DNA of 64,000 nt, taken from NCBI GenBank assembly GCA_028865345.1, contig JAGWKL010000002.1, positions 665-64,664 of the forward strand, written 5' to 3'. Source of the stretch: Candidatus Omnitrophota bacterium (GTDB taxonomy: Bacteria > Omnitrophota > Gorgyraeia > Zapsychrales > Fredricksoniimonadaceae). Positions 1 through 34,175 of this stretch are shown piece by piece. Numbering within the stretch: the first letter of the stretch is position 1; every line of letters starts with the position of its first letter. Both the position numbers and the translations under genes were made by a program. A model generated the notes under the pieces. That model was not told the origin of the DNA. It saw only the letters and a list, made by a program, of their open reading frames with translations, and ran no database searches.

Positions 1-1359
1 TTTTCTATCAAAATAAGTGAAAACAAAAACCCACTAATTAAAAATGTCTTGCTGATATCCTTCGCCTTAGATCTTCTTATTTTGCCATTCACTCCAACAA
101 AATTTTACATACCCAGCATGGCGCCTAAATTGGTATTTCAATTTTGGCCTGTGACTGGCCCCCTCTTATATTATTCAATGATCCAATTTGTCATTGCGGT
201 CCCCTTAGCTTTCTTTTTACTTCAGACTAAATTAAACAAATCCACAGGAACATCAAAAAGAAATTTTCAAATTCTTTTCTATTCTTTATTAATAGGGTTC
301 TTAGGAGGAACCACCGATTACTTTCCTTGTATTAATATACCAATAGCACCGTATGGAAATGCCTTAGTGCCGATTTTTATTTTTGGATTTTTGTATTTAA
401 TTTTCAAACATCAAATAATGGATATTCACATAAGCCTTTCAAGAAGTTTTGTTTACACCATTCTTATATTCTTAATCACTCTTCTATATTTTTTAGTAAC
501 ATATCTAATAAACACCTATCTGAATTTAATTGGTTATCAATCATTTATTTTCTCACTTTTAGCTGCTTCAATTACTGCATTGACTTTTATCCCGCTAAAA
601 GATATTCTTCAGATGTTTATAGATAAACATTTTCTTAAAAAATCTATTAAAGAAATAGAAGAAGAAAATGAATTACTTAAGCAAGAAGTGATGCAATCTG
701 ATCGTATGAAATCCATCGCGATCTTAGCCAGCGGAATGGCTCATGAAATAAAAAACCCTCTGACACCCATTAAAACCTTCAGCGAGCTTCTCCCCTCAAA
801 GCTCGAAGACAAAGAATTCTTGCTCAAATTTTCAAAAATTATAGGCAAAGAAGTTGACCGGATCGATGGATTAGTTCAAGAGCTGCTTAGCTTTGCCAAA
901 CCAAGCGTGCCCCAATTGAAATCAACTAATATCTGCCAACTCATCGAACAAACCCTGGAATTCCTGAATAATGAAATCATCCGCCACAAAATCGTCCTAA
1001 ATACTTTTTTTGAAAACAAAATCATACTTATTGATCTTGACCCTCACCTAATAAAACAAGCTCTTTTAAACATTTTCCTAAACGCCATTGATGCCATGCC
1101 AAATGGCGGCACTCTTAGCGTCATTGCGAGGAACGAAACTACAAAGCAATCTTTTATCATCGAAATCTCCGACACCGGTTGCGGGATTTCACCTAAGGAT
1201 CTGTCTCACATTTTTGATCCGTTCTTCACAAAGAAAGACCACGGCACAGGTTTAGGCCTGTCCATAACCGAGGGGATAATCAAGAATCACAATGGAAAAA
1301 TATTAGTGAAAAGCGAATTGAATAAGGGGACTTCTTTTAGGATTGAACTTCCGGTTTAA
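1..1359 (+). CDS. Membrane sensor histidine kinase, 5' partial. The multi-TM N-terminal domain probably continues upstream of the window.
   Basis: The reading frame is open all the way back to position 1; the ORF track starts it at a TTG (position 49). Hydrophobic helices are followed by a coiled coil, then a HisKA-type H-box (ASGMAHEIKNPLTPI) and HATPase_c G-boxes (DTGCGISP, GTGLGLSI). Confidence 0.8.
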   Translation, partial: FSIKISENKNPLIKNVLLISFALDLLILPFTPTKFYIPSMAPKLVFQFWPVTGPLLYYSMIQFVIAVPLAFFLLQTKLNKSTGTSKRNFQILFYSLLIGFLGGTTDYFPCINIPIAPYGNALVPIFIFGFLYLIFKHQIMDIHISLSRSFVYTILIFLITLLYFLVTYLINTYLNLIGYQSFIFSLLAASITALTFIPLKDILQMFIDKHFLKKSIKEIEEENELLKQEVMQSDRMKSIAILASGMAHEIKNPLTPIKTFSELLPSKLEDKEFLLKFSKIIGKEVDRIDGLVQELLSFAKPSVPQLKSTNICQLIEQTLEFLNNEIIRHKIVLNTFFENKIILIDLDPHLIKQALLNIFLNAIDAMPNGGTLSVIARNETTKQSFIIEISDTGCGISPKDLSHIFDPFFTKKDHGTGLGLSITEGIIKNHNGKILVKSELNKGTSFRIELPV

Positions 1360-2543
1360 ATCTCGCCTTTATTATAAAGCTCGACCAAGGCCTCCACGGG
1401 CTTGTGATGGAATTGCTTATTAACACACTGTTGTATTTCTATAATGGCCTCGTCCTTGCTTAATCCTTTACGGTAAGGCCTGTCCGTTGTCATGGCATCA
1501 AAGGTATCGGCCACGGCAATGATCGCTGCGATCATGGGGATATCTTCCCCTTTCAACCCATCCGGATAGCCTTGCCCGTCGTAGCGTTCATGATGGTATT
1601 GAACACCATTTATGACCTCTTCAAAACCGGTCAATGAAGAAAGGATCTCGGCCCCGCGGGTGGTATGGCTTTTCATGATCTCATATTCTTCGGCCGTTAA
1701 TTTGTCCTGCTTGGATAAAATGGCCTCAGGTACGCCGATCTTTCCGATATCATGCAAAAGCCCGGAAATATACAAGTTTTCGAAAAACTTATAAGGAAAA
1801 ACATAAGACTTGGCCGCCTCCATTCGGCGGCCTATGGCCAAAGCATATTTGGTGACACGTTCCGTATGACCGTGTGTGTAGATGTCCTTGGCTTCAATGG
1901 CTGACCCTAAGGCAATGGTTGTCTGGATAAACAAATTGCGGTTACGTTCCGCTTCTTTCTTAAGACCCTCAAATAATTGGGCATTGCGGATGGCAATGGC
2001 CACATCGGAGGCCAAAGCTGAAAAGAAATTCAATTCTTCCTGATCGAAACGGGCACCGTCCTGCTTTTCTCCGAGCAACAAAATAGCCATCAGCATATGC
2101 TGGTAATAAGCAGGCACGCAGGCCACGGCATTGAGCTTGGGTAATTGTTCACTGACATTGTGCAAAAGCTGCTTGGTGCCGTTGCCGTTGGAAATGACGC
2201 TTTCTTTCCAGAGAAGCTTATTAATGTCTTCAGCGACGATGGCATTGCGGTTTTCAAAGATATATTTATATTCTTTCTGGATAAAAAGTTTTATCAAAGG
2301 ATTGGTCTTGTTGAAGCGGATCAAGCCCTCGGGAATGCGTTCGCCTATACCTCCTCGGGAAATAGACAAAACATAGGAATCCCTGTCCGGATTATAAAGG
2401 ATCATGCCGGCATGCTGGATACGGACTTTTTGGACAAGGGAGCGGACAATGAGCTTGATCAATAAGCGGTGGTCATGGATCAAAACCATGCCTTTAGAGG
2501 CGGATTCCAATTCTCGCTTATAATCAATCTTGGTGGGAGGCAT
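1356..2543 (-). CDS. GAF domain plus HD-GYP domain protein; predicted c-di-GMP phosphodiesterase.
   Basis: An N-terminal GAF-like region precedes an HD-GYP domain with the motifs HDIGKIGVP, HTTRGAEIL and YHHERYDGQGYP. Its stop overlaps the stop of the convergent kinase by 4 nt. Confidence 0.85.
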   Translation of the reverse strand: MPPTKIDYKRELESASKGMVLIHDHRLLIKLIVRSLVQKVRIQHAGMILYNPDRDSYVLSISRGGIGERIPEGLIRFNKTNPLIKLFIQKEYKYIFENRNAIVAEDINKLLWKESVISNGNGTKQLLHNVSEQLPKLNAVACVPAYYQHMLMAILLLGEKQDGARFDQEELNFFSALASDVAIAIRNAQLFEGLKKEAERNRNLFIQTTIALGSAIEAKDIYTHGHTERVTKYALAIGRRMEAAKSYVFPYKFFENLYISGLLHDIGKIGVPEAILSKQDKLTAEEYEIMKSHTTRGAEILSSLTGFEEVINGVQYHHERYDGQGYPDGLKGEDIPMIAAIIAVADTFDAMTTDRPYRKGLSKDEAIIEIQQCVNKQFHHKPVEALVELYNKGEI

Positions 2544-2544
2544 C

Positions 2545-2904
2545 TTAACTGTTTAACTGTGCCAGGACTATCTTTTCAAGCTCTTCGAGAATGAAAGGCT
2601 TATGAATATACCCAAGAACGCCCAAAGCGTTGGCTTCTTTTATAGTTTCCTCATCCTCAACACCGGAAACCATGACGACTTTGACATTTAAATTGGCCTG
2701 GCGGAGCTGGCGCAAAACCTCAATACCTGTGATCTCTTCCATCCTGACATCAAGCAACACCAGATCGGGCTTCTCTTGTGAAATAATCTCCAAAGCCTGA
2801 CGGCCTCCGGATGCCACAAAAACATCGATTTTGCGTTTTTTAAAAAAATTCCGCGCAAATTCCCGGATGTCGGATTCATCATCAACGATCAATAATTTTG
2901 CCAT
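2545..2904 (-). CDS. Stand-alone response regulator receiver (CheY-like) domain protein.
   Basis: 119 aa protein starting LLIVDDE, with a phospho-acceptor Asp in LLDVRM and a conserved Lys near the C-terminus. It lies 2 nt upstream of the HD-GYP gene. Confidence 0.85.
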   Translation of the reverse strand: MAKLLIVDDESDIREFARNFFKKRKIDVFVASGGRQALEIISQEKPDLVLLDVRMEEITGIEVLRQLRQANLNVKVVMVSGVEDEETIKEANALGVLGYIHKPFILEELEKIVLAQLNS

Positions 2905-2926
2905 AATATAAGTTTATCCTAAAACC

Positions 2927-5086
2927 CTACCCTATAGCAATAGGCAAACGCAATTTCATCTGCGTGCCGTGCATATACTTGGAAACCATCTCCACCCTAC
3001 CGCCGTGATTTTCTTCGATTATTTTTCTGATCACATAAAGCCCCAAACCGGTGCCTTTTTTGCTGGAAAGCTTTGTTGTAAAGAACGGAGTAAACATTTT
3101 ACTCATGTCTTCATCTTTAACACCGACACCATTGTCTTCAAAAATGATCTCTACATACCCATCTTCTTTAAAAACCCGCACAATCAAGGTCGGCTGATAA
3201 TCCGGCTCACGTCTCTCGTCTTTTCTTTGCATCATCGCATCATAACCATTATCAATGAGATTAAAAAACACTTCCTGCACCTGCGTAAAATTAGCTTTTA
3301 TTTTTGGAATGGTCGCAACATCATATTCACGGATTATTTTCAACTGCTGCGTTTTGATCTTAAACTGTGTCATTTCCAAGGCGGCTTTAAATACCGCGTC
3401 TACATCAACAGCCGCAAAGCCGGTCTCTCCCTTGCGGGTATATTTCAAAAGCCCCTGAACGATTTCTCCGCCCTGCGTAACATTTTCCTGGACGCGTACA
3501 AGCGCACGCTCCAATTCCGCCATAACTTCTTTTGACTTTTCTGAGGACAACGCCTCTTTTTGATTCAAATGGATCGTATCCAAAGCATCACCGGCAATAA
3601 AACCCAACGCATGAAAACGGTTGTTGATCTGATGCGACAGCCCGTCAGCCATGGTGCCGATGGTGGCCATCTTTTCAGCCTTAAACAACTGCTCTTGGGT
3701 CAATTTCATGTCTTCATAAAACTTAGCATTCTCGATGGCAAGGGCGGTTTGATTGGCCAAAATTCCAAAAACAGAAATATCGTCCTGGGTATAAATTTTC
3801 CCGGATTCTTTTTTGCCCATTACTATGATGGCTATAATGCTACCTTCAATAAAAATGGGCGCAATCAATTCACCATCGAGAGAAGAAATGTCCTCTTCTA
3901 CTTGCCCTAATGTTAAACCCTTAAAGTCTTGGGACTTCTGCTTAAATTCTTCATAAATAACCAAATTCTTATCATCTAACAAATATCGTATTAAAGAAGA
4001 GTTTTCCGAAATTTTATCAAGAAACTGTTTATGACCAGACTTCCTTTTTATTGCACCCAGAAAATACTGTTTCTTTTCTTTATCATGAATATAAATCGAT
4101 GCGTGTTCAATTTGTATGGCATGTGTCAACACATATACAATCATATTTAACAACTTTTTTAAATCCTTTATTTTACCCATTCCAGCAGATGCTTGGCGTA
4201 AAGTAGCCTGATAACGACGCTGTTCTTGTAACAATTTGTCTTCGGCTTGTTTTTGTACATAAAGATAAATAAATGGGCCTAATGTTGCAAATAATGCCAT
4301 TAAGCCTATGGGCAACAACCAAGCCCCTTTCCCCAAAAACTTAAAACCTATCCATACAGGAATACCTAAAACAAAAGAATAAACAGCAATAAAAATAGCT
4401 GTATTGGATATAGCCACTCGTATATCCATAAGCCTATAACGAACAATGGCATAAGCAGAAATTGTTAAAGATATCAAAATCGCCACTACACCTAGTGGAT
4501 AAAAAGAGAAACCATAATTAACAAAAAAATCAGTAGACGCCAAACAATAAACAAAAAATGCGATTAACAAGAATGTAAGTTGACTTCCCAAAACTCCTTG
4601 CCATCTAATAAGAAAGCCTTTTTGTAAAAGCTGAAAAAAACACATTCCCATAAGCGTAAAAAGATATAATAAGAATAAAGGGTGTAAAATTCCAGCCTTT
4701 GGATAGTACCCCCAATAAAAATGATTTACTCCATTAATTAACAAATTGGTGGGAAGTAATATTATAAAAAAAAGACTCACAAAATAAGCCTTTTTAGTAA
4801 GACGCCAAAAATTTCGCGAATCAACAAAAGCTGTAAAATAATGTAAATAAGTAGCAGGTATCAACACTATTCCAATATGCCCAATCCTAGCAATATTCTT
4901 TGCTAATTCTAAATTGTTAGTATTGAATAAAAAGAACCAACTAAATTGCCACCAAAATGTAACAACTGAATTAAATAAAAAACCTAGGCGGATAGACCGA
5001 TTTCCCTTGCTTTTCAAATAAACAAAGGAACCAAGCAATAAGAAGAGAATAGCAGAAATTAAAGGAAGGAGAGAATATCTACTCAA
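2927..5086 (-). CDS. Sensor histidine kinase with a roughly 280 aa multi-TM (7TM-receptor-like) N-terminal domain, a GAF domain, HisKA and HATPase_c.
   Basis: About seven predicted TM helices are followed by a GAF-like segment, an H-box (MADGLSHQINN) and N, G1 and G2 boxes (IDNGYDAM, GTGLGLYVIRKIIEENHGG). Confidence 0.85.
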   Translation of the reverse strand: MSRYSLLPLISAILFLLLGSFVYLKSKGNRSIRLGFLFNSVVTFWWQFSWFFLFNTNNLELAKNIARIGHIGIVLIPATYLHYFTAFVDSRNFWRLTKKAYFVSLFFIILLPTNLLINGVNHFYWGYYPKAGILHPLFLLYLFTLMGMCFFQLLQKGFLIRWQGVLGSQLTFLLIAFFVYCLASTDFFVNYGFSFYPLGVVAILISLTISAYAIVRYRLMDIRVAISNTAIFIAVYSFVLGIPVWIGFKFLGKGAWLLPIGLMALFATLGPFIYLYVQKQAEDKLLQEQRRYQATLRQASAGMGKIKDLKKLLNMIVYVLTHAIQIEHASIYIHDKEKKQYFLGAIKRKSGHKQFLDKISENSSLIRYLLDDKNLVIYEEFKQKSQDFKGLTLGQVEEDISSLDGELIAPIFIEGSIIAIIVMGKKESGKIYTQDDISVFGILANQTALAIENAKFYEDMKLTQEQLFKAEKMATIGTMADGLSHQINNRFHALGFIAGDALDTIHLNQKEALSSEKSKEVMAELERALVRVQENVTQGGEIVQGLLKYTRKGETGFAAVDVDAVFKAALEMTQFKIKTQQLKIIREYDVATIPKIKANFTQVQEVFFNLIDNGYDAMMQRKDERREPDYQPTLIVRVFKEDGYVEIIFEDNGVGVKDEDMSKMFTPFFTTKLSSKKGTGLGLYVIRKIIEENHGGRVEMVSKYMHGTQMKLRLPIAIG

Positions 5087-5492
5087 AGTAAATATGATTA
5101 GTAATAACCTTTTTGATCCCTTCAGGGAGCCGAAGAATTGACCCCTTATTATTCACAAAAATAAGTGTTTCGCCTCCAATACTAACAACTTCACCTGATT
5201 GTTTATTAAGATAAATAAACATCATTTCGAAACTGGATTTCTTTATATTACGGTTTTGTACTCTTAGTAAAATACGATCAAACGCATGAATCTGTTTTTT
5301 ATATTCATTCCAGGCATGTTTTGTGACCAAAGTTATATTATTAAATATTTCTTGATAATTTTCTACAGTAGTAAAATAGAGCTCTCTGCATATCCCCTGC
5401 CACTCGAAATATCGAGAAAAATAGACAGTCCCGTACATATTAATATCTTTTAAAGTAACAATAAATTCATACTCAAATGCGTCCTGATTCAT
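5079..5492 (-). CDS. Hotdog-fold (4HBT-like) acyl thioesterase.
   Basis: 137 aa protein. The YGTVYFSRYFEWQ signature near the N-terminus is typical of 4HBT/YbgC/FcoT thioesterases. It is translationally coupled to the upstream ACP by a 4 nt overlap. Confidence 0.55.
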   Translation of the reverse strand: MNQDAFEYEFIVTLKDINMYGTVYFSRYFEWQGICRELYFTTVENYQEIFNNITLVTKHAWNEYKKQIHAFDRILLRVQNRNIKKSSFEMMFIYLNKQSGEVVSIGGETLIFVNNKGSILRLPEGIKKVITNHIYFE

Positions 5493-5719
5493 AGATTCTT
5501 TGAATTAAGATAATTAATTACATCTTTAACTGTTTTTAATCTTCCAATTTCTTCTTCGCCTATTTTTATATTAAATTTATCTTCAATATTTAATACTAAT
5601 TCAACAATATCCAATGAATCTGCTCCTAAATCTTCAAATTTTGAGCAGTCCTTTAAATCTTCCCTTTTAACTCCTAGAGTGTCAGCTATTATAGTCTTTA
5701 CTATATCTATATTAGTCAT
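5489..5719 (-). CDS. Acyl carrier protein.
   Basis: 76 aa acidic protein with the phosphopantetheine attachment motif DLGADSLDIVELV. Confidence 0.85.
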   Translation of the reverse strand: MTNIDIVKTIIADTLGVKREDLKDCSKFEDLGADSLDIVELVLNIEDKFNIKIGEEEIGRLKTVKDVINYLNSKNL

Positions 5720-5739
5720 ACCCCTCTAAAATAATATTT

Positions 5740-7014
5740 TCAGAACTTATACGTCAAACTCACCAACCCGATATTTATAAACTCACTATATTTCCCATCC
5801 ACCGTACCGGCGCTGCCGGCCGTCGACTTGGCAACTGAGTTGATAATGTTCCGTGTATCATAAAAAAGGATTGAATAGGCCACATCAAGTGTCAGGCGTT
5901 TAGTGATATCATAACCAAAACCTGTGGTATAACCGTTGGAATTGCTGTCCGGTATCCTCGGGTTAAAGGTGGCATCTGGGATAACCATTTCATGATGGTA
6001 ATAACCTAACCTTACACGAAAACGATCGTTGACATTATATTGGGTACCGATGGATTCAGACCATGCGGAATGCCAATCTGCGGGGGTGGGAGCAGCGAAA
6101 CCTAAAGTATTAAGGGTTGCACTGCCGTTGATGTTGATCGTCTGGTATTTCGTGCTGGACCAATCCACCCATGCCACATCAAGGTTAACCGTCCATTTCT
6201 TTGTAGGTTTGAAGCTATATCCTGCCACCACACTTTGAGGTAAAACCGACTTCTCGCTAACATTAGACACATAGGATGAAAAACCATAAGCAGTGGGATT
6301 AGCCCCGTTAATGCTCATTTTCCCCCGGTAATTGTGATTGATACGGCTGCGGTAGATCAAACCGATTTGATTTTTGTCATTGATTTTATACAGGGTCGCT
6401 ATACGGTATCCCCAAGCATCATCACCACCTTTAAGCTCGGCAATACCGATTGATCCGCCGTAACCATTAAGCGCAAAACTTTCATCCGCCTTTGATTCAT
6501 CGTTGTCCACGCTTGCGGCTATGGACCATTGCGGGGTCACTTGATACGAAAACGCCAGGGAATTATCAATGTCTGTAATGCTGGCCTGGGTTGTTGCATA
6601 CTCCAAAGGACTGTTAGGCCCCCAATTAGTGGCAGTGCCCCAATAAGAACCTGAACCAAAACCAATGCTTAATTTATTATTGACAGGCAAAACAGCGTAA
6701 AAATTGGGAATATTGAATTCATTGTTTTGCATGTGCACAGTATTTCCGTTTGGCTGTACCATATGGCCTCTGGGCGCAATAAGAGCATCTCCTACGGAAA
6801 TTTCCGGCCTGGTCATTTGATTCATACCGGCTGGGTTGTAGTACATGGCCGCAGGCGTATCCGCTTCACCGACAAAAGCCGAACCCATACCCATTGCACC
6901 AGCGTCGGGAACCTCTATATTATAGGCCCCGGAACCTGTAGCAAACGCACTCTGTCCCCAGGAAGTCATCAAAAACGCACAAAAAACGATGATGAATATA
7001 CGGAATAATGACAT
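5740..7014 (-). CDS. FadL/TodX-family outer-membrane beta-barrel protein, a channel for long-chain fatty acids or other hydrophobic compounds.
   Basis: It has a signal peptide and the N-terminal GAMGMGSAFVGEADTPAAMYYNPAG region typical of the FadL hatch domain. The amphipathic beta-strand pattern and the C-terminal YKF aromatic end are typical of OMP barrels. Confidence 0.65.
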   Translation of the reverse strand: MSLFRIFIIVFCAFLMTSWGQSAFATGSGAYNIEVPDAGAMGMGSAFVGEADTPAAMYYNPAGMNQMTRPEISVGDALIAPRGHMVQPNGNTVHMQNNEFNIPNFYAVLPVNNKLSIGFGSGSYWGTATNWGPNSPLEYATTQASITDIDNSLAFSYQVTPQWSIAASVDNDESKADESFALNGYGGSIGIAELKGGDDAWGYRIATLYKINDKNQIGLIYRSRINHNYRGKMSINGANPTAYGFSSYVSNVSEKSVLPQSVVAGYSFKPTKKWTVNLDVAWVDWSSTKYQTININGSATLNTLGFAAPTPADWHSAWSESIGTQYNVNDRFRVRLGYYHHEMVIPDATFNPRIPDSNSNGYTTGFGYDITKRLTLDVAYSILFYDTRNIINSVAKSTAGSAGTVDGKYSEFINIGLVSLTYKF

Positions 7015-7153
7015 TTTATCCCTCCATTATTAAAGGGTTTACAATACCCGCATTTTGCGGAAACAACATAATATGGATGAACACATTGAAATTATACTTC
7101 GTCGAAGGCTCGACGGGAAGGGAAAACAGAAATATTTTTGATTAAAGCTCAAA

Positions 7154-7522
7154 TTATAGAATGGCCTCAAAAGCATTCTTCAGATGTTGAATTTGAGCCA
7201 ATCCTGTTTTGTCGCGGATGATGGAAACCACATCAAATCGTGAAGGAATTTCCAAAGACCCGTATTTGTATTTCAGATAAAGCGCGGCCAATTGGGAAAG
7301 CTTGCGGATTTTCCAGGAAGTCACGGCCTCATAAGGCTGGCCTTGATCCAGGCTTTGGCGGGTCTTGACTTCGATAAAACAAATGGTTTTACCATCTTTG
7401 GCGATTAAATCGATTTCGCCCAATTTGCTGCGGAAGTTTTCCTCCAATATGCGGTAGCCTTGGTCTAGCAAATATTGCCGGGCCAGGGACTCACCATAGA
7501 CTCCCAAGGTTTTATTGGACAT
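7154..7522 (-). CDS. yraN: YraN-family (UPF0102) predicted endonuclease.
   Basis: GESLARQYLLDQGYRILEENFR...GEIDLIAKDG..IFIEVKTR matches the UPF0102 signature. Confidence 0.8.
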   Translation of the reverse strand: MSNKTLGVYGESLARQYLLDQGYRILEENFRSKLGEIDLIAKDGKTICFIEVKTRQSLDQGQPYEAVTSWKIRKLSQLAALYLKYKYGSLEIPSRFDVVSIIRDKTGLAQIQHLKNAFEAIL

Positions 7523-7552
7523 GAAGGAAGCTTAACAAATATATGATTATTA

Positions 7553-7587
7553 GTCAACTATAATATTGACTTATAGTCAATATTAAC
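7553..7587. promoter_or_regulatory. AT-rich dyad symmetry element (TAATATTGAC-N5-GTCAATATTA) in the yraN/hemH intergenic region.
   Basis: I read a perfect 10 bp inverted repeat with a 5 bp spacer at 7561-7585, with a partial extra repeat (AGTCAACTATAA) at its 5' side. Confidence 0.3.
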
Positions 7588-7701
7588 CGCGCAACTGCCG
7601 AAGAGCATGCTGAAAAACAAGCCAATAGTAGAACATTAGAAGAAGAAGGACAAGGACAACGATGACACCGGACCAGGAGAATTTATTTTTCATAAGACGC
7701 T

Positions 7702-8724
7702 TTAAGGAGACGGCGTAACCATCTGTTTCAGACACTCAACCCATAGAGGATGAGCATTCAGACTTTCGACCAGCTGCCAATGCTCTCCCCCGTGTTCTAA
7801 AAAAAGTTTTTTATATTCTACACCTATTTCAACGCTGGTCTCAAGACAATCCGCCACAAAGGCCGGAGAAAAAGTCAGCACCTTTTTAATGCCGCGCCCT
7901 GCCAGTTGCTTGATGACCTCATCCGTGTACGGCTTGATCCACGGCGTCTTGCCCAACCGCGACTGGAAACAAATCGTATATTCATCTTTTTTGATCCCAA
8001 GCTCCTGGACTAACAGCCGTGTCGTCTCAAAACACTGGGCCCGGTAGCAATATTGATTTTTGCCGTGATAAGTCGCGCAACAATCCCCCAATTTGCAATA
8101 ATCGCCGCAAGACGCTTTGAGGATCTGGCGCTCAGGCAAACCGTGATAACTAAACAGATAATGGTCGAAATTTCCCTGCGCCATATATTTTTTACCGGTC
8201 TGGGCAAAAGCTTTGATAAAAAGCGGGTGGTCAAAAAACCGGCTGATGCATTTGATCTCAGGAACCACCTCCCAATGCTTTACAACATTCATGACATCCT
8301 CTATCGTTGAACCCGTCGAGGAAGAAGCATATTGCGGATACAAAGGAATGATGATCAATTGCTTGAAGCCCTTATTCTCGAAATGCGGCAAAACCGATTG
8401 AATACTCGGGGACTGATATCGCATGGCCAATTTCACCAGGAAATCCCCGCCCAGGGCCTGTTGTAAAAGCCCTTGCAGTTGTTGGCCGTAAACCTTCAGC
8501 GGAGAACCTTCGTTAGTCCACAATTGGCGATACGCTTTGGAGGATTCAGGCGCTCGAAACGGAGCAATGACAAAATTGACAAGTAAAAACCTGCGCCAAA
8601 AAGGGATGTCCATGACGCGCCCATCCATCAGGAACTCACGCAGATATTTACGCACGTCCCCCGTCGAAGGGCTGTCAGGAGTGCCTAAATTAATGATCAA
8701 TACGCCGGTTTTGGGGTTGGACAT
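7702..8724 (-). CDS. hemH: Ferrochelatase.
   Basis: The N-terminus KTGVLIINLGTPDSP and the YSYHGLPE-like core (LFSYHGLPERQ) are ferrochelatase signatures. I moved the start to MSNPKTG. There is an internal Cys-rich insert (CGDYCKLGDCC...CYRAQC). Confidence 0.85.
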   Translation of the reverse strand: MSNPKTGVLIINLGTPDSPSTGDVRKYLREFLMDGRVMDIPFWRRFLLVNFVIAPFRAPESSKAYRQLWTNEGSPLKVYGQQLQGLLQQALGGDFLVKLAMRYQSPSIQSVLPHFENKGFKQLIIIPLYPQYASSSTGSTIEDVMNVVKHWEVVPEIKCISRFFDHPLFIKAFAQTGKKYMAQGNFDHYLFSYHGLPERQILKASCGDYCKLGDCCATYHGKNQYCYRAQCFETTRLLVQELGIKKDEYTICFQSRLGKTPWIKPYTDEVIKQLAGRGIKKVLTFSPAFVADCLETSVEIGVEYKKLFLEHGGEHWQLVESLNAHPLWVECLKQMVTPSP

Positions 8725-8796
8725 GGCAGGCATTATACTGGAAAAAAGAGAAAGAGGACACATTAATGTGTCCCCTTTTCCCTTTTACATAAATGC

Positions 8797-9078
8797 TTAC
8801 TTACGGATCATGTCCAACGGCGACGTGACCATATCCAAGGATCCGTCGACAATTTGCTTGGCCATATAAAACGTGCCCTTAAGGACACCGCCGACCAACG
8901 CAAAGGGAAGGAACTTGGCATCTTTTGTCTCCGTCTTGACGTTGCCGCTGATCTGCAAAGGTGCGGTGATCACATCTTTAACGCCACCCTGAAACTTTGA
9001 CACAGTATCAGCAAAAGACGGTACGCTTAAACCCCACACCACTGCCAAAGCAATAAGAAAAGAGACCATGCGTTTCAT
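8797..9078 (-). CDS. Small secreted or periplasmic protein of unknown function.
   Basis: The signal peptide MKRMVSFLIALAVVWGLSVPSFA is followed by a roughly 70 aa mature domain. No motif is recognised. Confidence 0.4.
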   Translation of the reverse strand: MKRMVSFLIALAVVWGLSVPSFADTVSKFQGGVKDVITAPLQISGNVKTETKDAKFLPFALVGGVLKGTFYMAKQIVDGSLDMVTSPLDMIRK

Positions 9079-9183
9079 AAGGCACCTCCTTCTTAAGGGG
9101 CCAGACCGCACTCTCCCAATTCAAGTATGTCACATAAAAATCGGATATGTAAGTGCGAAAAGGCCTATCCCGGAAAACGGTTC

Positions 9184-10263
9184 CTACCACTCCAGCGCGC
9201 CGCCGGTCTGGTATTCGGTAACGCGGGTCTCGAAGAAATTCTTTTCCTTCTTAAGGTCGATGATTTCGCTCATCCAGGGAAAAGGATTGCTGCTCTTATA
9301 TTGCACAGGCAGACGCAATTTTTCAAGACGGCGGTCCGCGATATACTGCACATACTCGCGCAGCATGGCCGTGTTGAGCCCCAAGACCCCGCGGGGCAGG
9401 CATTCCTGGGCATAGGAACACTCTAATTCAACCGCTTTTTTAATGCGTTCGACCAGATGCTCCTTGAACTCAGAGGTCCAGCAATAAGGGTTCTCATCGA
9501 TGATGGTGTTGATAAGCTCAATTCCGAAATTCATGTGGATGCTCTCATCGCGCAGAATGTATTGGATCTGCTCGCAGGTGCCGGGCATGCGGTTCTGACG
9601 GCCGAAAGACAACATGGTCACAAAACCGCTATAAAAGAAAATACCTTCCGTAACCACATAGAAAGCCACCAGGTTATCCAAAAATTTCTGCAAGCCGGCC
9701 GGGGTGGCCAAATCCACCGTGGTGTCTACAATCCCGTCGGTGCAGCTCATTGAAAATTCATCTTTTGCATAAATTTCCTGATTCTCGCGGTACATATTGA
9801 AAATTTCCGTCTCATCCAGGGAAAGAGATTCCACAATGTACTGAAAGGTGTGCGCATGCACAGCTTCCTCAAAAGCCTGGCGCAACAAATACTGGCGGCA
9901 TTCCGGATTGTCCACCATCTTGTATATGGACAGCACGATATTATTGCCCACCAGGGTCTCAGCCGTCGAGAAAAAGCCCAGGTTACGCTTGATCACGTGG
10001 CGCTCGTCCTCTGTAAAAGCATTGGGATTCTTCCATTGCTCGATGTCGCGCTGCATGGAAACCTCAGTCGGCATCCAGGTATTGGCGCAGCCGTCTAAGT
10101 AAAAATGCCAGGCCCATTTGTATTTGATGGGCACCAGCTGGTTGACGTCGACGGTACGGTTATTGAGGATAATGCGTTTGTTATCGGCGGAAACGCGATC
10201 GCGGGTCATGCGCAGGCCGCCGGAGCATTCAGCTTGAGGATTGGTTTGGGGGGTTTCTGGCAT
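9184..10263 (-). CDS. nrdB: Class Ia ribonucleotide reductase beta (R2) subunit.
   Basis: Di-iron/tyrosyl-radical motifs are present: [18 protein letters not shown] and DESIHMNFG. It lies 20 nt downstream of nrdA. Confidence 0.9.
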
Positions 10264-10283
10264 GTTAAAGACCTCCTAAAAAT

Positions 10284-13200
10284 TTACTGACAGGATTCGC
10301 AGTCCTGCACAGGTTCGGCGGCCGGTTTGGGGGCCGGCGAATCAACCACCCTGCCTTTTTCATCCCGCTGGCGCTGGCCTACCACATTGCCGTATTTATT
10401 GATATTCAAGGTGCTTTTTTCAATGCGGGTGGCACCCATGGAACGCAGATAATACGTCGTCTTCAAGCCCTTTTCCCAGGCAAACATGTACATATCGCTG
10501 ATCTTCTTACCGCTGGGCTTGGCCTGGTACAGATTCAAAGACTGCCCCATGTCGATCCATTTTTGACGGCGGGAGGCCGCCTCTATGATCCATTCATAAT
10601 CGATTTCAAAGGCCGTCGCATATTTGGCCTTCAGGGCTGCGGGAATGCGGGTGATCTCCTGCACACTGCCGTCGAAATATTTCAGGTCATCGATCATTTC
10701 CTGGTCCCAAATGCCCAATTTCTTGAGGTCTTCGACCAGGCATTCATTGATGACCGTAAATTCACCTGACAGGTTGCTTTTGACAAAAACATTCTTATAC
10801 ATAGGCTCGATGGACTGGGTGACGCCGGTGATGTTGCCGATCGTGGCCGTCGGCGCAATGGCCATGACCAGGCTGTTGCGCAGTCCATCCCGCTTGATGG
10901 CGGCACGCAGCGGTGACCAATCCATACGCGCTGAAGTGTCCATGGTCAAATAACCGCCGCGCTCTTTTTCCAAAAGCCCGATGGTATCAATGGGCAAAAG
11001 GCCCCTGTCCCATTTGGAACCTTTATAGCTGCAATAGCTCCCCCGCTCGCGAGCCAATTCCACTGACGCCTGCAAGGCATAGTAAGAAACCGCCTCCATA
11101 CTCTCATCGGCAAAATCGACCGCTTCCTGGGACGCATAACTGTAATTAAGCGCGTACAAAGCGTCCTGAAAACCCATGATCCCCATCCCCACAGGACGAT
11201 GGCTCTGGTTGGCGGCCTTGGATTCTATGGTGGGATAATAATTGATGTCAATGACGTTATCCAGCATGCGCACCGCAGTAGCAATGGTTTGCCGGAGTTT
11301 ATTGGCATCGAGCCCCTTGTCCGTGACGTGGACGGCAAGGTTGATGGACCCCAAATTGCATACCGCAGTCTCGTCCTTGGATGTATTCAACAAAATTTCC
11401 GTGCACAAATTGGAACTATGCACCACACCGGCGTGATCCTGGGGAGAGCGTATATTCGAAGGATCCTTCCAGGTCATCCACGGATGGCCGGTCTCAAAGA
11501 CCATGCTTAAAGCTTTACGCCACAGCTGCACGGCGGAAATGGTCCTGAAATTCTTGATCTTGCCCTCCCGGGCCATCTGTTCATACGCCTCATAGCGCGC
11601 CTCAAAGGCCTGGCCGTAAATATGGTGCAGATCCGGACATTCCGACGGTGTAAAGAGCGTCCAGTCCGCGTTGGCCTTGACCCTTTTCATAAAAAGATCC
11701 GGTACCCAGACGGCCGTATGCATGTCATGCGTGCGGCGGCGTTCATCGCCGGTGTTCTTGCGCAACTCCAGAAATTCTTCGATGTCCAAATGCCAGGCTT
11801 CCAGATAAGCGCACATGGCGCCCTGGCGCTTGCCGCCCTGGTTGACCGCCAAGGCGGTATCGTTGGCAACCTTCAAGAACGGGATGACGCCCTGGCTCTT
11901 GCCGTTGGTGCCTTTGATGCGGCTGCCCATGCCGCGCACATTGGTCCAGTCATTGCCCAATCCCCCACTCCACTTGGAAAGCATGGCATCGTCCTGGATG
12001 CATTTGAAAATGTGGAACAGGTCATCTTCGACCGTTGTCAAAAAGCAGGACGACAATTGGGGATGGCGGGTGCCTGCGTTAAACAGCGTCGGGGTGGATG
12101 ACATGAAACGGAAAGTGGAAAGGATGTTATAAAACTCGACGGCCTTCTGGTTCTTCTGCTCACCTTCGTTGACGGCCAAACCCATCGCCACCCGCATCCA
12201 GAAAATCTGGGGCAATTCGATGCGGCGGTCTTCCCAATGGATAAAATAACGGTCATACACCGTCTGCAGCCCCATATAGCGGAAAATAAAATCGCGTTCA
12301 GGGACAAGGGCCTTGCCCAAGGCCTTTAAATCAAAAAGTTTCAAGGCAGAGTCCAATAATTCATGCTTTACACCCAGATTGATATAGGTGTTTAAATATT
12401 CAGGATATTCCGCGCGCATCCGCTCAAAGGAAACATCCTGACCCAGCGCTTCCTGATAAGCCATCAAAAGCAGCAAACGCGCAGCCACAAACCCGTAATT
12501 AGGTTCTTTCTCGATAAAGCTGCGGGCAGCCAGGATATTGGCCTGGGACAACTGGCGCTCTGTCATGCCATTGAAATAATTTTTGACAGCTTCCTTAAAA
12601 AGCTTTTCCACTGAAACATCGGCCAGCCCTTTGCAACAGGTCTCAAACCTGAAACGCACCTCATCCAGATCAATGGGACGCTCAAGCCCGCCTTCGCCTT
12701 TAAGGACCAGGTTTTTGACCCATTCAATGGATTCTTCCACCTGAACACCGGAGCGATTACGCCGGACCTTGGCTCTTTCTTCTCTATATATAATATACCG
12801 CTTGGCCACTTCATGATAACCGGCGGCCATGATCACTTTTTCCGCAATGTCCTGCACTTCTTCAATATGGATGGATTTGCCCTCCGGCCAACGGGTGCGG
12901 ATCTCGGAGACAGCCTTCTCGCAAAGCTCCTGGGCTTTTTCGATCAGGATTTCATTATAAATACCTTTGTTTTGGGCGATCAGGGCCTTGGCAATGGCCA
13001 GGGCGATCTTTTCCTGCTTGAAAGAAACCACCTTGCCGTCGCGCTTGATCACTGAATATAATTCAAATAATTTGCGCCGTTCGGCATGATAGCGACGGTA
13101 ACTGGCATAACGTTCCGCTGCTTCCTTATAGCCGTTTTCGTACAACTGGCGGATCACCTCATCCTGGATCTCCTCGACTGTCAGGAAAGGCCGCTTGACC

Positions 13201-13412
13201 CCGCGTTCTTTCAAGACCGCCACCACGCAATCCGTCACTTCTTGCGCTTTTTTCATCTCTTCTTGCGTTAATTCAGACTCCCGGGGAAGACCGATTTGTT
13301 CCTTGAAGGAATTTGCGATGGCATGGGTGATGCGGTTGGGGATAAATTCAATGATTTGACCGTTGCGCTTTTGGACTCTGATGTCGAAATTGGCGGCAGT
13401 TTCCGGCGGCAT
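10284..13412 (-). CDS. nrdA: Class Ia ribonucleotide reductase alpha (R1) subunit with three tandem N-terminal ATP-cone domains.
   Basis: 1042 aa protein. Three ATP-cone repeats (VQKRNGQIIEF, VIKRDGKVVSFKQEKI and a third ending YIIYREER) precede the catalytic barrel (SNLCTEI) and a C-terminal CESCQ redox tail. Confidence 0.9.
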   Translation of the reverse strand: MPPETAANFDIRVQKRNGQIIEFIPNRITHAIANSFKEQIGLPRESELTQEEMKKAQEVTDCVVAVLKERGVKRPFLTVEEIQDEVIRQLYENGYKEAAERYASYRRYHAERRKLFELYSVIKRDGKVVSFKQEKIALAIAKALIAQNKGIYNEILIEKAQELCEKAVSEIRTRWPEGKSIHIEEVQDIAEKVIMAAGYHEVAKRYIIYREERAKVRRNRSGVQVEESIEWVKNLVLKGEGGLERPIDLDEVRFRFETCCKGLADVSVEKLFKEAVKNYFNGMTERQLSQANILAARSFIEKEPNYGFVAARLLLLMAYQEALGQDVSFERMRAEYPEYLNTYINLGVKHELLDSALKLFDLKALGKALVPERDFIFRYMGLQTVYDRYFIHWEDRRIELPQIFWMRVAMGLAVNEGEQKNQKAVEFYNILSTFRFMSSTPTLFNAGTRHPQLSSCFLTTVEDDLFHIFKCIQDDAMLSKWSGGLGNDWTNVRGMGSRIKGTNGKSQGVIPFLKVANDTALAVNQGGKRQGAMCAYLEAWHLDIEEFLELRKNTGDERRRTHDMHTAVWVPDLFMKRVKANADWTLFTPSECPDLHHIYGQAFEARYEAYEQMAREGKIKNFRTISAVQLWRKALSMVFETGHPWMTWKDPSNIRSPQDHAGVVHSSNLCTEILLNTSKDETAVCNLGSINLAVHVTDKGLDANKLRQTIATAVRMLDNVIDINYYPTIESKAANQSHRPVGMGIMGFQDALYALNYSYASQEAVDFADESMEAVSYYALQASVELARERGSYCSYKGSKWDRGLLPIDTIGLLEKERGGYLTMDTSARMDWSPLRAAIKRDGLRNSLVMAIAPTATIGNITGVTQSIEPMYKNVFVKSNLSGEFTVINECLVEDLKKLGIWDQEMIDDLKYFDGSVQEITRIPAALKAKYATAFEIDYEWIIEAASRRQKWIDMGQSLNLYQAKPSGKKISDMYMFAWEKGLKTTYYLRSMGATRIEKSTLNINKYGNVVGQRQRDEKGRVVDSPAPKPAAEPVQDCESCQ

Positions 13413-13447
13413 GCTATGTTTCCCTCCTAATGTGTTGAATCAAGAAT

Positions 13448-13495
13448 CATACTATAGGTATGGGGCACTAACTGACAGTAATACTACATATAGTA
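13448..13495 (-). promoter_or_regulatory. Two putative NrdR-box-like palindromes upstream of nrdA.
   Basis: Two near-palindromes sit upstream of the nrdAB start: CATACTATAGGTATG at 13448-13462 and TACTACATATAGTA at 13482-13495. Their centres are about 33 bp apart (roughly three helical turns). They resemble NrdR boxes but are not an exact consensus match. Confidence 0.3.
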
Positions 13496-13543
13496 TTTAA
13501 TAAAAAAGAGAAGTCAACGCTTTTTTTAGAATTTTTTCCAATT

Positions 13544-14158
13544 TTATCTCTTTGCGGCATTGAAACGCTTCTCGACTTCCTGCCAGTTGACCACGTTCCA
13601 AAAAGCCGCAATGTAATCAGGACGGCGGTTTTGGTATTGCAGGTAGTAGGCATGTTCCCAGACATCAATGCCCACGACGGGAGTTTTTCCTTCCATTAAC
13701 GGGCTGTCTTGATTGGCCGTCGAAGAAACTTCCAATTGACCGGGCTTGGAAACTGTCAGCCACGCCCAGCCGCTGCCGAAACGGGACGTTGCCGCCTGGG
13801 CGAATTTTTCTTTGAAAGCGTCGAAAGAACCGAAGGTCTGGTTGATCGCCGCGGCGATATTGCCCGACGGCACCCCGCCGGCCTTGGAGCCGATGATGGT
13901 CCAGAAAAACGTGTGGTTGGCATGGCCGCCGCCGTTGTTGCGCACCACTGTGCGGATGTCTTCCGGCACGGCATTCATATTGGAAATCAAATCCTCGACG
14001 GACTTGCTTTCCAAATCTGTTTTCCCCTTGATGGCATTGTTGACATTATTAATATACGCCTGGTGGTGCTTGGTGTGATGGATTTCCATGGTCGCGCGAT
14101 CGATATGCGGCTCCAGGGCATTATACGGGTAAGCTAACGGGGGTAATGTGTAAGCCAT
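13544..14158 (-). CDS. Fe/Mn-family superoxide dismutase.
   Basis: The N-terminus [31 protein letters not shown], plus metal ligands and the DVWEHAYY motif, are all present. Confidence 0.9.
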
Positions 14159-14812: not shown

Positions 14813-15217
14813 ATGAGGCGCATGTTCACCTATAAGACCACCATCAAACTGCACGACACCGACGCCGCCGGGATCCTTTTCTTTGCCAACCAATTCAGGA
14901 TCATCCATGATGCTTACGAGCTTCTGCTTGAAAAATTCGGCTGGAGTTTCCCGAAAATGCTTCGACAAACGAATTACTTTCTGCCCATCGTGCATGCACA
15001 GTCCGATTACCTGGTCCCTCTCTTTGTAGGAGACAAGATAACCGTTTCCGTCAGGGTTGGGCATATCGGAAAAACATCATTTTCTTTTGAATACATACTC
15101 AAGCGGGGCAAGACCATGGTTGGGAGCGCCAAAACTGTGCACGTGACCATTGACCAAAAGACCCGCCGGAAAACCCCCCTGCCCGACACCCTGCGCCGGG
15201 CGCTTAACAAATGCTGA
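14813..15217 (+). CDS. Hotdog-fold (4HBT/YbgC-like) thioesterase; candidate 1,4-dihydroxy-2-naphthoyl-CoA thioesterase of the men cluster.
   Basis: The HDTDAAGILFFANQFR motif marks the 4HBT fold. It is adjacent to menE-menC-menA-menB. The start is uncertain between M1 and M4. Confidence 0.55.
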   Translation: MRRMFTYKTTIKLHDTDAAGILFFANQFRIIHDAYELLLEKFGWSFPKMLRQTNYFLPIVHAQSDYLVPLFVGDKITVSVRVGHIGKTSFSFEYILKRGKTMVGSAKTVHVTIDQKTRRKTPLPDTLRRALNKC

Positions 15218-18455: not shown

Positions 18456-19289
18456 TCAGGGCCTCTTGGGAAATTTAGAAAAATCCGGTTTGCGTTTCTG
18501 CACAAAGGCATTACGGCCTTCCTGGCCCTCTTCAGTCATATAAAATAAAAGCGTGGCATTGCCCGCCAGCTCCTGCAAACCGGCCTGCCCGTCGCAATCC
18601 GCGTTCATGGCGGACTTGATGCAGCGGATGGCCAAAGGCGAATGCTGCAAAATTTCTTTGGCCCAACGGACGGTCTCTTTTTCCAATTCTCTATATGGGA
18701 CGACCGTGTTGACCAATCCCATCTCCAGCGCCTGCTTGGCATTATACTGCCGGCACAAAAACCAGATCTCGCGCGCCTTTTTCTGGCCGACAATGCGCGC
18801 CATGTAGCTTGAGCCGAACCCTCCGTCGAAGGACCCCACCTTCGGGCCCGTCTGGCCGAAGACCGCGTTGTCCGCGGCAATGGAAAGGTCGCAGACCATA
18901 TGAAGGATCTGACCGCCGCCCACGGCATAACCCGCCACCATGGCAATGACGGGTTTCGGACAGGAGCGTATCTGACGTTGAAAATCCAGCACATTCAAAC
19001 GGTTGGTGCCGTCCTTGTCCTTATAACCGGCATCCCCTCGGATCTTCTGGTCCCCGCCGGAACAAAACGCTTCTCTGCCTTCACCGGTCAGGATGATGAC
19101 GCCCACCTTCTCGTCATCGCGGGCATCGTTTAAAGCGTCCATCATTTCTTTGACTGTAACCGGCGTAAAAGCATTGCGTCGCTGGGGACGGTTGATCGTG
19201 ATCTTGGCCATGCCTTCCATCTTTTGATATTTGATCTCTGTGTAGGACTTAGCCGTTTTCCAGGAGAATTTCGACATATTGACCCTCAA
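18456..19289 (-). CDS. menB: 1,4-dihydroxy-2-naphthoyl-CoA synthase (crotonase family).
   Basis: The sequence is MenB-like throughout, including [36 protein letters not shown] and the C-terminal KRKPDFSKF. Confidence 0.9.
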
Positions 19290-27453: not shown

Positions 27454-27457
27454 AGGT

Positions 27458-28345: not shown

Positions 28346-28347
28346 TT

Positions 28348-28596: not shown

Positions 28597-28600
28597 GAGA

Positions 28601-34101: not shown

Positions 34102-34175
34102 CTCTTTTAAAGTATGTAATATATTTAGATAAAAAACAAGGGTCAAAGAACAATAAAAATGGTAATATAACAGCC

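Follow-up and report, generated by a model that had tools for sequence, protein, structure and literature searches.

The stretch of DNA analysed here (hereafter the window) spans 64,000 nucleotides (nt) of Candidatus Omnitrophota bacterium (assembly GCA_028865345.1, contig JAGWKL010000002.1, positions 665 to 64,664 of the forward strand). Its first 7 kb carry a compact module of seven genes, in which an acyl carrier protein (ACP) and a hotdog-fold thioesterase (TE) adjoin a histidine kinase (HK) with a seven-transmembrane (7TM) sensor. A sequence-only reading had proposed that the module is an undescribed fatty-acid signal circuit controlling cyclic di-GMP (c-di-GMP). All seven genes and their domains were confirmed, by the open reading frame (ORF) list and by profile searches, at the places given in that reading, and their signature residues were intact. 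The features of the module are as follows.

5740..7014, minus strand: FadL/Toluene_X outer-membrane channel for hydrophobic molecules (Pfam Toluene_X, 3.9e-57), the first gene of the predicted operon.
5489..5719, minus strand: AcpP-type ACP with Ser35 (TIGR00517, score 79.6 against a cut-off of 70.45).
5079..5492, minus strand: 4HBT_2 hotdog TE of the CalE7/DynE7/SgcE10/EspE7 type, with candidate catalytic residues Asn18, Tyr28 and Arg36.
2927..5086, minus strand: main kinase, HisKA_7TM-GAF-HATPase, with a TTG start.
4193..5086, minus strand: sensor part of the main kinase (residues 1-298), the HisKA_7TM seven-helix bundle plus two more transmembrane (TM) helices.
3689..4192, minus strand: GAF domain of the main kinase (residues 299-466; Pfam GAF_2/GAF_3).
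2927..3688, minus strand: transmitter of the main kinase, with the dimerization and histidine phosphotransfer (DHp) domain (His485) and HATPase_c (Pfam HATPase_c, 4.6e-20).
2545..2904, minus strand: stand-alone receiver (REC; Pfam Response_reg, 6e-30).
1356..2543, minus strand: GAF-HD-GYP protein, a predicted c-di-GMP phosphodiesterase (Pfam HD_5, 1.5e-35, and GAF).
1..1359, plus strand: second kinase HK2, HisKA_7TM-HisKA-HATPase (Pfam HisKA, HATPase_c), convergent on the HD-GYP gene.
3800..5750: hypervariable low-GC allelic block 1, covering the ACP, the TE, and the 7TM and most of the GAF domain of the main kinase.
1..1100: hypervariable low-GC allelic block 2, comprising the sensor and DHp of HK2 and running on past the window edge.
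7015..7153, minus strand: intergenic region of 139 nt 5' of FadL, the sole sizeable gap, which contains GTATAAT.

The minus-strand genes were closely packed. The spacing was 139 nt between yraN and FadL, 20 nt between FadL and ACP, -4 nt between ACP and TE, -8 nt between TE and HK, 22 nt between HK and REC, and 1 nt between REC and HD-GYP, i.e. -8 to +22 nt inside the module instead of the 0 to 4 nt given previously. The ACP stop and TE start codons overlap in an ATGA, the TE and HK genes overlap by 8 nt, and start and stop codons overlap in homologous loci as well. The stop codons of the HD-GYP and HK2 genes overlap by 4 nt, matching the convergent second kinase of the sequence-only reading. 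The 139-nt gap upstream of FadL is likely the promoter region. A consensus promoter scan did not flag it, and the promoter and terminator scans returned chance-level counts, with a weak terminator-like hairpin in the kinase gene as the sole in-operon feature.

We examined conservation of the module in a scan of one genome per GTDB species, which yielded 276 TE relatives, and 80 fetched loci (denoted below by L numbers, as are other homologous loci) were searched with the window proteins. A second set of 80 loci came from metagenomes (five short Omnitrophota loci, the rest proteobacterial-type) and replicated the result independently. The TE adjoined a 7TM kinase in 138 of the 160 loci (75/80 genome and 63/80 metagenome loci), which span Omnitrophota, Elusimicrobia, Proteobacteria and Bacteriovoracia. 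The N-terminal 7TM parts of these kinases matched that of the window at 100-185 bits, and the TEs of the genome loci were 32-39% identical. All four TE/HK orientations were found among the 75 genome loci: 52 divergent, 11 convergent, 6 TE->HK and 6 HK->TE. In four of the five genome exceptions, the TE lay at the end of its contig. The remaining one, L067, was the only one of the 160 loci with a polyketide synthase (PKS)-type context, its TE following a 2,799-aa ORF with an ACP match. In each of the 17 metagenome exceptions, the contig extended less than ~1.3 kb beyond the TE in at least one direction, too short for a kinase.

Three genomic contexts of the Omnitrophota-type module were distinguished. 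Context A (the window, L002, and L089/L090) had the full layout including the convergent HK2, as far as the contigs reach, and L002 carried the same seven genes and the same flanks as the window. Context B (L003/L004 and the P0017 contig) was arranged as rpmF-plsX-fabH-fabD-FadL-(HK2-like)-TE-7TM/GAF-HK without an ACP gene, a PilZ gene coming next in L003/L004. Context C (L005-7, L088, and L091) looks like a mobile element from its gene content: TraU/TraF/TraH, then REC, in some a ketosynthase (KS), FadL-ACP-TE-7TM HK-REC, and an integrase where the contig reaches. A tyrosine integrase was seen in L005 and L088, a FabF-like ketosynthase and a second ACP in L005-7, and several receivers occurred in this context.

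Clustering of neighbouring genes found no third partner conserved across lineages. ACP and FadL accompanied the pair in Omnitrophota, FadL being present in every Omnitrophota-type locus with upstream sequence and also in L173 and L174; the pair stood alone in Proteobacteria, and its annotated neighbours in Pseudoduganella were unrelated genes. Because the adjacency persists while nothing else is common between the lineages, the conserved core is the TE plus the 7TM sensor kinase, with ACP and FadL as add-ons. Synteny conservation, which had been proposed as a check for the six-gene block, was therefore found for a unit present in several Omnitrophota and in other phyla, whose core is two genes rather than six. 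Since the layout recurs in L002 and L089/L090 and the adjacency in 138 of 160 loci, the arrangement in the window is not due to chance. That the two genes have stayed adjacent in several phyla despite rearrangement argues strongly for functional coupling, and the genes of the module very probably form one functional unit.

Two further neighbours of the pair were seen in single lineages. In a Bacteriovoracia metagenome-assembled genome (MAG), an AfsA gene (L010:4711-5454; PF03756, 2e-29) lies directly after the TE-7TM kinase pair, with another kinase downstream. AfsA is a hotdog protein of A-factor/gamma-butyrolactone biosynthesis, and hence a second acyl-ACP-using signal-synthesis enzyme at that locus. 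In two gammaproteobacterial MAGs, a protein of 276-338 aa with a weak receiver match (L008:11811-12641 and its L009 counterpart) follows the TE-7TM HK pair and may be a lineage-specific cognate regulator.

Comparison of the window with L002 revealed an allelic pattern. Nucleotide identity was 99.8% over 5800-14000 and 98.5% over 1200-3750, and only ~72%, with sharp boundaries, in the block ~3800-5750, which holds the ACP, the TE and kinase residues 1 to ~430 (the 7TM domain and most of the GAF domain, residues 299-430 of which lie inside the block). A second block, from 1 to ~1100, was ~73% identical and takes in the sensor and DHp of HK2. Among the encoded proteins, FadL (99.8%), REC (99%), HD-GYP (100%), and the DHp and catalytic domains of the main kinase (98%) were conserved, whereas the ACP (64%), the TE (69%), the 7TM domain of the main kinase (65%) and HK2 (80%) were variable. 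Codon usage followed the same division: the G+C content at third codon positions (GC3) was 0.13 for the ACP, 0.29 for the TE, 0.25 for the 7TM part, 0.35 for the GAF domain and 0.36 for HK2, compared with 0.60-0.71 for housekeeping genes, and the main-kinase gene was itself a mosaic, with a GC3 of 0.49 in its core. Low overall GC of the same genes recurred in L002, L003, and L005, i.e. in three genomic contexts. It could stem either from a foreign origin in low-GC mobile DNA or from selection.

The window TE was nearer to the alleles of other genomes (78%, 77%, and, on a Tra/integrase element, 74%) than to that of L002 (69%), which suggests cassette exchange of alleles. The kinases of context C had 7TM domains 54-58% identical to that of the window, while the transmitter and remaining parts fell to 14-34%; the sensor therefore travels with the ACP and TE genes. 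A locus whose signal-making genes and receptor sensor vary while transmitter and regulator are conserved resembles pherotype loci.

These data bear on the possibility that there is no functional circuit at all, the close packing resulting from genome streamlining and the variable block being a recombination scar or an assembly artefact. The promoter and terminator information is at consensus level only, all Omnitrophota sequences come from metagenome assemblies, and the allelic comparison concerns a single pair, all of which would fit this explanation. However, an independent assembly (L001) has exactly the window allele together with its junction with FadL, the overlaps of start and stop codons are found in homologous loci as well as in the window, and the cross-phylum adjacency is joined by two independent gene fusions, PilZ::TE and REC::HD-GYP (described below). 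We therefore consider this explanation very improbable.

The TE was assigned to the CalE7 type by several comparisons. Its best phmmer matches in the PDB were EspE7 (5vpj, 9e-12), CalE7 (1e-11), SgcE10 (2e-11; labelled as an ACP-polyene thioesterase in its record) and DynE7 (1e-8), with an identity to these enediyne thioesterases of only ~25%. The structure model (mean predicted confidence, pLDDT, 90.6) gave Foldseek TM-scores of 0.84-0.88 to CalE7, DynE7, SgcE10, and EspE7, and enediyne-type thioesterases took the top 30 ranks, ahead of all acyl-CoA thioesterases. Residues N18, Y28, and R36 align with N19, Y29, and R37 of CalE7 and were invariant in 87 family sequences; the motif RYFEWQGxCRE surrounds this region, and its WQGxCRE part is common to the enediyne enzymes. 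An R35A mutant of EspE7 has been deposited (9ccr), which indicates only that this Arg was chosen for study.

A generic YbgC-type housekeeping enzyme, which the sequence-only reading had named as the outcome that would argue against its proposal, was not found. The TE missed the cut-offs of TIGR00051 (23 bits against 68.7) and TIGR02799 (21.5 against 141), its nearest relatives were of the CalE7 type, and no tol-pal genes lay near it in the window, so a YbgC/FadM-type enzyme was rejected. Its Asn takes the position of the catalytic Asp of E. coli YbgC. CalE7 hydrolyses the ACP-tethered products of CalE8, and its recognition depends more on the acyl moiety than on the ACP (PMC3107222). Because CalE7-type relatives act on ACP-tethered chains, an ACP thioester is the likely substrate of the window TE. 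Profile searches found no PKS in the window. The module also had no RpfF-type crotonase, the only ECH_1 protein of the window (18456-19289) being MenB in the menaquinone cluster. A second 4HBT_2 hotdog (14813-15217) lies on the opposite strand beside menE-menC-menA-menB; it is presumably a 1,4-dihydroxy-2-naphthoyl-CoA (DHNA-CoA) thioesterase and served as the housekeeping hotdog of the window for comparison.

The ACP carries Ser35 in a DSLD motif and was 47% identical to E. coli AcpP. Its GC3 of 0.13 and its 64% identity between genomes that are otherwise 99.8% identical ruled it out as the cell's housekeeping AcpP, and no fab genes were adjacent to it in the window. From its position it appears to be dedicated to the module and co-translated with the TE.

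The link to c-di-GMP was examined through the receiver, the HD-GYP protein and their relatives. Read from the sequence, the receiver residues were intact (D8/D9, the phospho-acceptor D52, S80, and K102), and the receiver is presumed to be the phosphorylation target of the kinase or kinases. The HD-GYP motifs were likewise intact (H264-D265 and HHERYDGQGYP at 317-327; HD_5 122.9 bits against 27.2), with phosphodiesterase activity being predicted only, and the protein was 100% identical to that of L002, 89% to that of L089, and 80% to that of L173. As had been described, it carries a GAF domain rather than a receiver, REC being a separate protein in the window. In L176, the pair is followed directly by an REC::HD-GYP fusion (TE - 7TM HK - REC::HD-GYP, the RpfG architecture), which strengthens the kinase-to-HD-GYP link proposed earlier. 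Genes for c-di-GMP functions recur near the pair, including HD-GYP and stand-alone PilZ proteins; the PilZ protein that follows the kinase in L003 lacks the RxxxR motif as called. The REC-GGDEF protein of L088 was not counted as an active cyclase, its motif being the degenerate GGDDF.

PilZ domains were also fused to the TE itself. A search of 1.84 billion cluster representatives returned 462 matches to the TE family at E<=1e-3, of which 121 were at E<=1e-10. About one third of the best 149 representatives had an N-terminal extension, and PilZ was found there in nine of ten that were scanned. A local HMM search identified PilZ::TE fusions in at least 32 of the 149, i.e. at least a fifth. Both RxxxR and [DN]x[ST]xxG were present in 23 of the 32, so that c-di-GMP binding is predicted. 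The fusions include the closest relatives of the window TE outside its own cluster (46-51% identity). L173 (FadL - PilZ::TE - 7TM/GAF-HK - REC - GAF/HD-GYP) has the layout of the window with PilZ replacing the ACP gene; its proteins were 80% (HD-GYP), 78% (REC), 60% (HK), and 52% (TE) identical to those of the window, and its PilZ motifs are R5-R9 and D33-G38. L175 reads PilZ::TE - 7TM/GAF-HK. In Elusimicrobia, L174 has four further kinases, three with HisKA_7TM, together with FadL - PilZ-PilZ::TE - 7TM HK - REC - REC. At this locus (L174:372-11398, GCA_020523905.1), the sensor family has expanded locally beside a single TE; the four further kinases precede FadL, one of them being apparently split, and a fourth 7TM kinase lies downstream.

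The two fusions act as Rosetta stones: PilZ::TE links c-di-GMP to the TE, and REC::HD-GYP links the receiver to HD-GYP. The PilZ::TE fusions point to c-di-GMP acting on the TE as well, and so indicate, at the level of domain architecture, that a loop is more likely than the linear pathway first envisaged. No PilZ-thioesterase fusion was described in the part of the literature covered by our search.

We also considered whether the pair serves membrane-lipid or acyl-ACP homeostasis, with the 7TM kinase monitoring the bilayer or free fatty acids and the TE adjusting or sampling the acyl-ACP pool as cell-autonomous housekeeping. Two loci lie directly after plsX-fabH-fabD, a FabF-like ketosynthase is upstream in L005, the ACP is AcpP-like, and the pair of Oxalobacteraceae belongs to the core genome, where it is stable and syntenic and evolves like its flanks. 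Homeostasis would not lead one to expect a 25-35% difference in sensor and ACP between otherwise 99.8% identical genomes, or a GC3 of 0.13-0.36 and Tra/integrase neighbours, and the PilZ and HD-GYP links and the AfsA neighbour point to behavioural signalling. This explanation therefore appears unlikely.

The remaining components concern how a hydrophobic molecule might reach the sensor and be detected. The FadL protein had a Toluene_X score of 194 bits (cut-off 29.7), a signal peptide and a GGAGG ribosome-binding site. Its NPA (NPAG) hatch motif aligned with that of E. coli FadL (1t16), to which it gave a PDB match of 1e-10, and further PDB matches were TodX, TbuX, and CymD. The main kinase scored 44.3 against 28.6 for PF16927 (HisKA_7TM) and 72.6 bits for HATPase_c, and its His485 lies in the H-box SHQINNR and was conserved in the alignment. 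Profile searches found no REC or histidine phosphotransfer (HPt) domain in it. Its GAF domain is paralogous to that of the HD-GYP protein (BLASTP, 24% over 193 aa, E 2e-17).

An AlphaFold model of the N-terminal 298 residues of the main kinase showed nine TM-length helices, two beyond those of the 7TM domain. In an alignment of 133 TE-linked kinases, 23 sensor positions were 97-100% conserved and matched in the window (P8, F15, G19, W46, Q47, W50, G69, P77, G119, G126, Y128, P129, A131, G132, H135, D186, N190, Y191, G192, Y196, P197, G199, and L207). According to the model and alignment, most of the invariant 7TM residues belong to, or are close to, loops assigned to the periplasmic side by the positive-inside rule, and these loops contain the motifs WGYYPKAGxLHP and DxxxNYGxxxYPxG. 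The modelled orientation of the conserved loops is consistent with a ligand that comes from outside the cell or out of the outer leaflet. The matches in a fold search with the 7TM domain were all generic GPCR/rhodopsin bundles (4-14% identity), from which no ligand could be deduced; the literature covered by our search gave no ligand for the HisKA_7TM family either, naming HisKA_7TM in only two papers, of which the one we checked lists it among sensor domains. HK2 is truncated at its 5' end by the window edge; its L002 homologue, which has HisKA_7TM, is 534 aa long, and HK2 aligned to residues 82-534 of it; an HK2-like kinase lies between FadL and TE in L003/L004. Because the HK2 sensor co-varies with the ACP and TE, HK2 probably belongs to the circuit rather than being a mere neighbour.

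A ligand from outside would also accommodate an exogenous hydrophobic cue, where FadL admits environmental, host or prey lipids, the 7TM kinase detects them and HD-GYP lowers c-di-GMP, the TE being a co-regulated output or adaptation enzyme and not the maker of the ligand. Association with hosts or prey is assumed for many Omnitrophota. The conserved residues of the 7TM domain are on the periplasmic side, PilZ::TE makes the TE look like a c-di-GMP effector, i.e. an output, and FadL is classically an uptake channel (PMC5977203). An exogenous cue, however, leaves unexplained why the TE adjoins the 7TM kinase in 138 of 160 loci and in four orientations, and why ACP, TE, and sensor were replaced together beside an identical FadL; moreover, the proteobacterial pairs have no nearby FadL. 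We regard this explanation as rather unlikely. It and homeostasis each explain the co-replacement of TE and sensor less well than a circuit in which the TE product is the ligand.

From the observed gene order, domain identities, intact motifs, cross-phylum adjacency, fusions and allelic pattern, we infer such a circuit. The CalE7-type TE, whose action on ACP thioesters is deduced from its sequence relatives, would cleave an acyl chain from an ACP, namely the dedicated ACP in the window and presumably the cell's AcpP elsewhere, and release a free fatty acid, or a methyl ketone if the substrate were a 3-oxoacyl-ACP. This hydrophobic product or a derivative would be the ligand of the adjacent GPCR-like 7TM sensor, whose conserved pocket would face the periplasm or outer leaflet, and FadL would provide passage for such molecules across the outer membrane. 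The main kinase, and probably also HK2, would phosphorylate the single-domain receiver, which would control the GAF-HD-GYP phosphodiesterase and hence the level of c-di-GMP. In relatives, c-di-GMP may feed back on signal production via PilZ fused to the TE. The identity of the ligand, its origin from the TE, phosphotransfer, the control of HD-GYP by REC and any sharing of the product between cells are the inferred elements of this scheme. Precedents for the proposed steps are RpfF, which makes diffusible signal factor (DSF) signals by acyl-ACP thioesterase activity (PMC4542539), a hotdog thioesterase that makes the infochemical 2-tridecanone from 3-oxo-myristoyl-ACP (PMC12794305), FadL, which aids perception of long-chain N-acyl homoserine lactones (AHLs) in rhizobia (PMC5977203), and the AfsA of L010.

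Several points weigh against this circuit. The catalytic role of Asn/Tyr/Arg is carried over from CalE7, for which Kotaka and colleagues reportedly described it in 2009. FadL channels are normally importers and would suit a ligand of exogenous origin just as well. A response regulator, FadL, ACP or c-di-GMP gene is usually lacking next to the proteobacterial pair, and the two loci in the plsX-fabH-fabD cluster suit lipid homeostasis as well as signalling. The window TE has no PilZ domain, so the feedback arm is drawn from its relatives, and for REC and GAF-HD-GYP in the window it is simply their adjacency that suggests a connection. The allelic pattern comes from a single genome pair (window and L002), and our search for further same-species Omnitrophota alleles with flanks found none. 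In six near-identical Oxalobacteraceae pairs, TE and kinase were no more divergent than their flanks, and strain-specific signalling is therefore not general to the TE-kinase pair.

Weighing these points, we put the probability that the TE product is sensed by the 7TM kinase with c-di-GMP as the output at about 0.5. True cell-to-cell signalling through this product is a tentative possibility. More doubtful still is that the loci form a lipid quorum-sensing family, in which the CalE7-type TE would be the autoinducer synthase and the 7TM kinase the receptor, with strain-specific pherotype cassettes carried on low-GC mobile DNA, an HD-GYP output and a PilZ-gated synthase. Of the fatty-acid signal circuit controlling c-di-GMP that had been read from the sequence, a conserved unit, a CalE7-type TE and the c-di-GMP fusions stand in its favour; the conserved core is two genes and not six, and a loop is more likely than a linear pathway.

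The surroundings of the module were unexceptional. The flanking 57 kb are ordinary chromosome (nrdAB, hemH, a men cluster, H+-pyrophosphatases, gatAB, secDF, and others), and no tRNA integration site was found near the module, the only tRNA of the window being at 43996-44082. A known anti-phage defence system was ruled out, as PADLOC matches were limited to generic HD, REC, and HATPase similarity. A search for riboswitches (c-di-GMP or other) found none in the leader or operon. It gave only sub-threshold Rfam matches (the terminator part of CsrC and miRNA models), all to a hairpin at 8738-8797, a strong 12-bp stem with a T-run that lies between nrdB and hemH and is terminator-like on both strands.

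Elsewhere in the window, a possible lipid-biosynthesis cluster (25338-29848) encodes a class-III aminotransferase, an HAD-type phosphatase, an alpha/beta hydrolase and a FabF-like ketosynthase; it lies ~22 kb from the module, and nothing indicates that the module is fed by it. Genes for two paralogous membrane H+-pyrophosphatases (35916-38321 and 41577-43973, ~800 aa each) stand 3 kb apart, with an adenylate-kinase-like gene and a 585-aa ORF without Pfam match between them. A 473-aa protein (19661-21082) has both lipase-maturation-factor domains (LMF1 4e-59, LMF1_C 6e-50), a family known mainly from eukaryotes. The sole Pfam match of a 1180-aa ORF (30604-34146) was UPF0489 near residues 913-996.

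A fixed acyl-releasing genomic partner provides the first concrete, testable ligand hypothesis for HisKA_7TM sensors, and the fusion of PilZ with an ACP thioesterase would add to the c-di-GMP effectors a new type that controls lipid release directly. The window organism is uncultured, and the core pair occurs in the cultured genera Duganella, Massilia, Collimonas, Variovorax, Polaromonas, Alcanivorax, and Trinickia. If lipid quorum sensing were true, no cell-cell signalling system would have been proposed for Omnitrophota and Elusimicrobia before it, and many cultivable Proteobacteria would have simpler forms of it. A PilZ-gated synthase, if real, would form a post-translational autoinduction loop. 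Pherotype diversification, if it holds, would mean kin-specific lipid communication in uncultured ultra-small lineages that are not known to have any signalling system, a lipid counterpart to the peptide pherotypes of Firmicutes. The literature search, as far as its coverage went, returned nothing on a TE and 7TM-kinase pair.

The enediyne thioesterases CalE7, DynE7, SgcE10, and EspE7 have the hotdog fold, the Asn/Tyr/Arg residues and the WQGxCRE motif in common with the window TE. They are, however, partnered with an iterative enediyne PKS (PKSE), which is absent near the window TE, whose partners are a stand-alone AcpP-like ACP (or none in relatives) and a sensor kinase. In the CqsA/CqsS and LqsA/LqsS systems, an autoinducer synthase gene stands beside a polytopic kinase that binds a hydrophobic acyl-derived ligand within or at its TM bundle. 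CqsA is a pyridoxal-phosphate-dependent acyl-CoA transferase, CqsS is a six-TM hybrid kinase, and the output is LuxU/LuxO or LqsR, not c-di-GMP. We liken these systems to the window by description only, as a synthase gene adjoining a membrane kinase.

The allelic pattern is paralleled by the ComQXPA locus of Bacillus, where the signal genes and the receptor sensor diverge between close strains while the cytoplasmic part of the kinase and the regulator are conserved, as in the window and L002. The agr locus of staphylococci is pherotype-polymorphic like ComQXPA. Both use peptide pheromones of Firmicutes, whereas the signal of the window is presumed to be a lipid and its pattern was seen in one genome pair. 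In ComQXPA pherotype loci, the N-terminal sensor of ComP is variable and its cytoplasmic part is conserved (PMC4008528; see also PMC4408185). Among lipid-derived signals, the methyl-ketone synthases (tomato MKS2 and Sinorhizobium SMc03960) are 4HBT-type hotdogs that act on 3-oxoacyl-ACP to give the volatile 2-tridecanone (PMC12794305). Those enzymes resemble YbgC in that their active site is built on Asp and they are associated with Tol-Pal, whereas the window TE fails the YbgC model and belongs to the CalE7 branch. The rhizobial FadL raises sensitivity to an acyl signal and is unlinked to the synthase or receptor genes (PMC5977203), whereas the window FadL heads the operon.

The closest likeness in logic is to the Rpf/DSF system of Xanthomonas and Burkholderia, as the sequence-only reading had noted: a signal from acyl-ACP cleavage, a membrane kinase and an HD-GYP output, built from other domains. 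The HD-GYP domain is the sole homologous component. The Rpf/DSF synthase is the crotonase RpfF, whereas the candidate synthase in the window is a hotdog CalE7-type TE; RpfC is a hybrid of TM input, HisKA, REC, and HPt, whereas the window sensor is HisKA_7TM-GAF-HATPase; and RpfG is an REC::HD-GYP fusion, whereas REC and GAF-HD-GYP are separate in the window and fused in L176. The module also differs from Rpf/DSF by its FadL and its dedicated ACP, and its relatives differ by a putative PilZ gate on the candidate synthase. The module may thus represent an acyl-signal, two-component and c-di-GMP circuit assembled from parts non-homologous to the known ones, possibly with a c-di-GMP-gated synthase.

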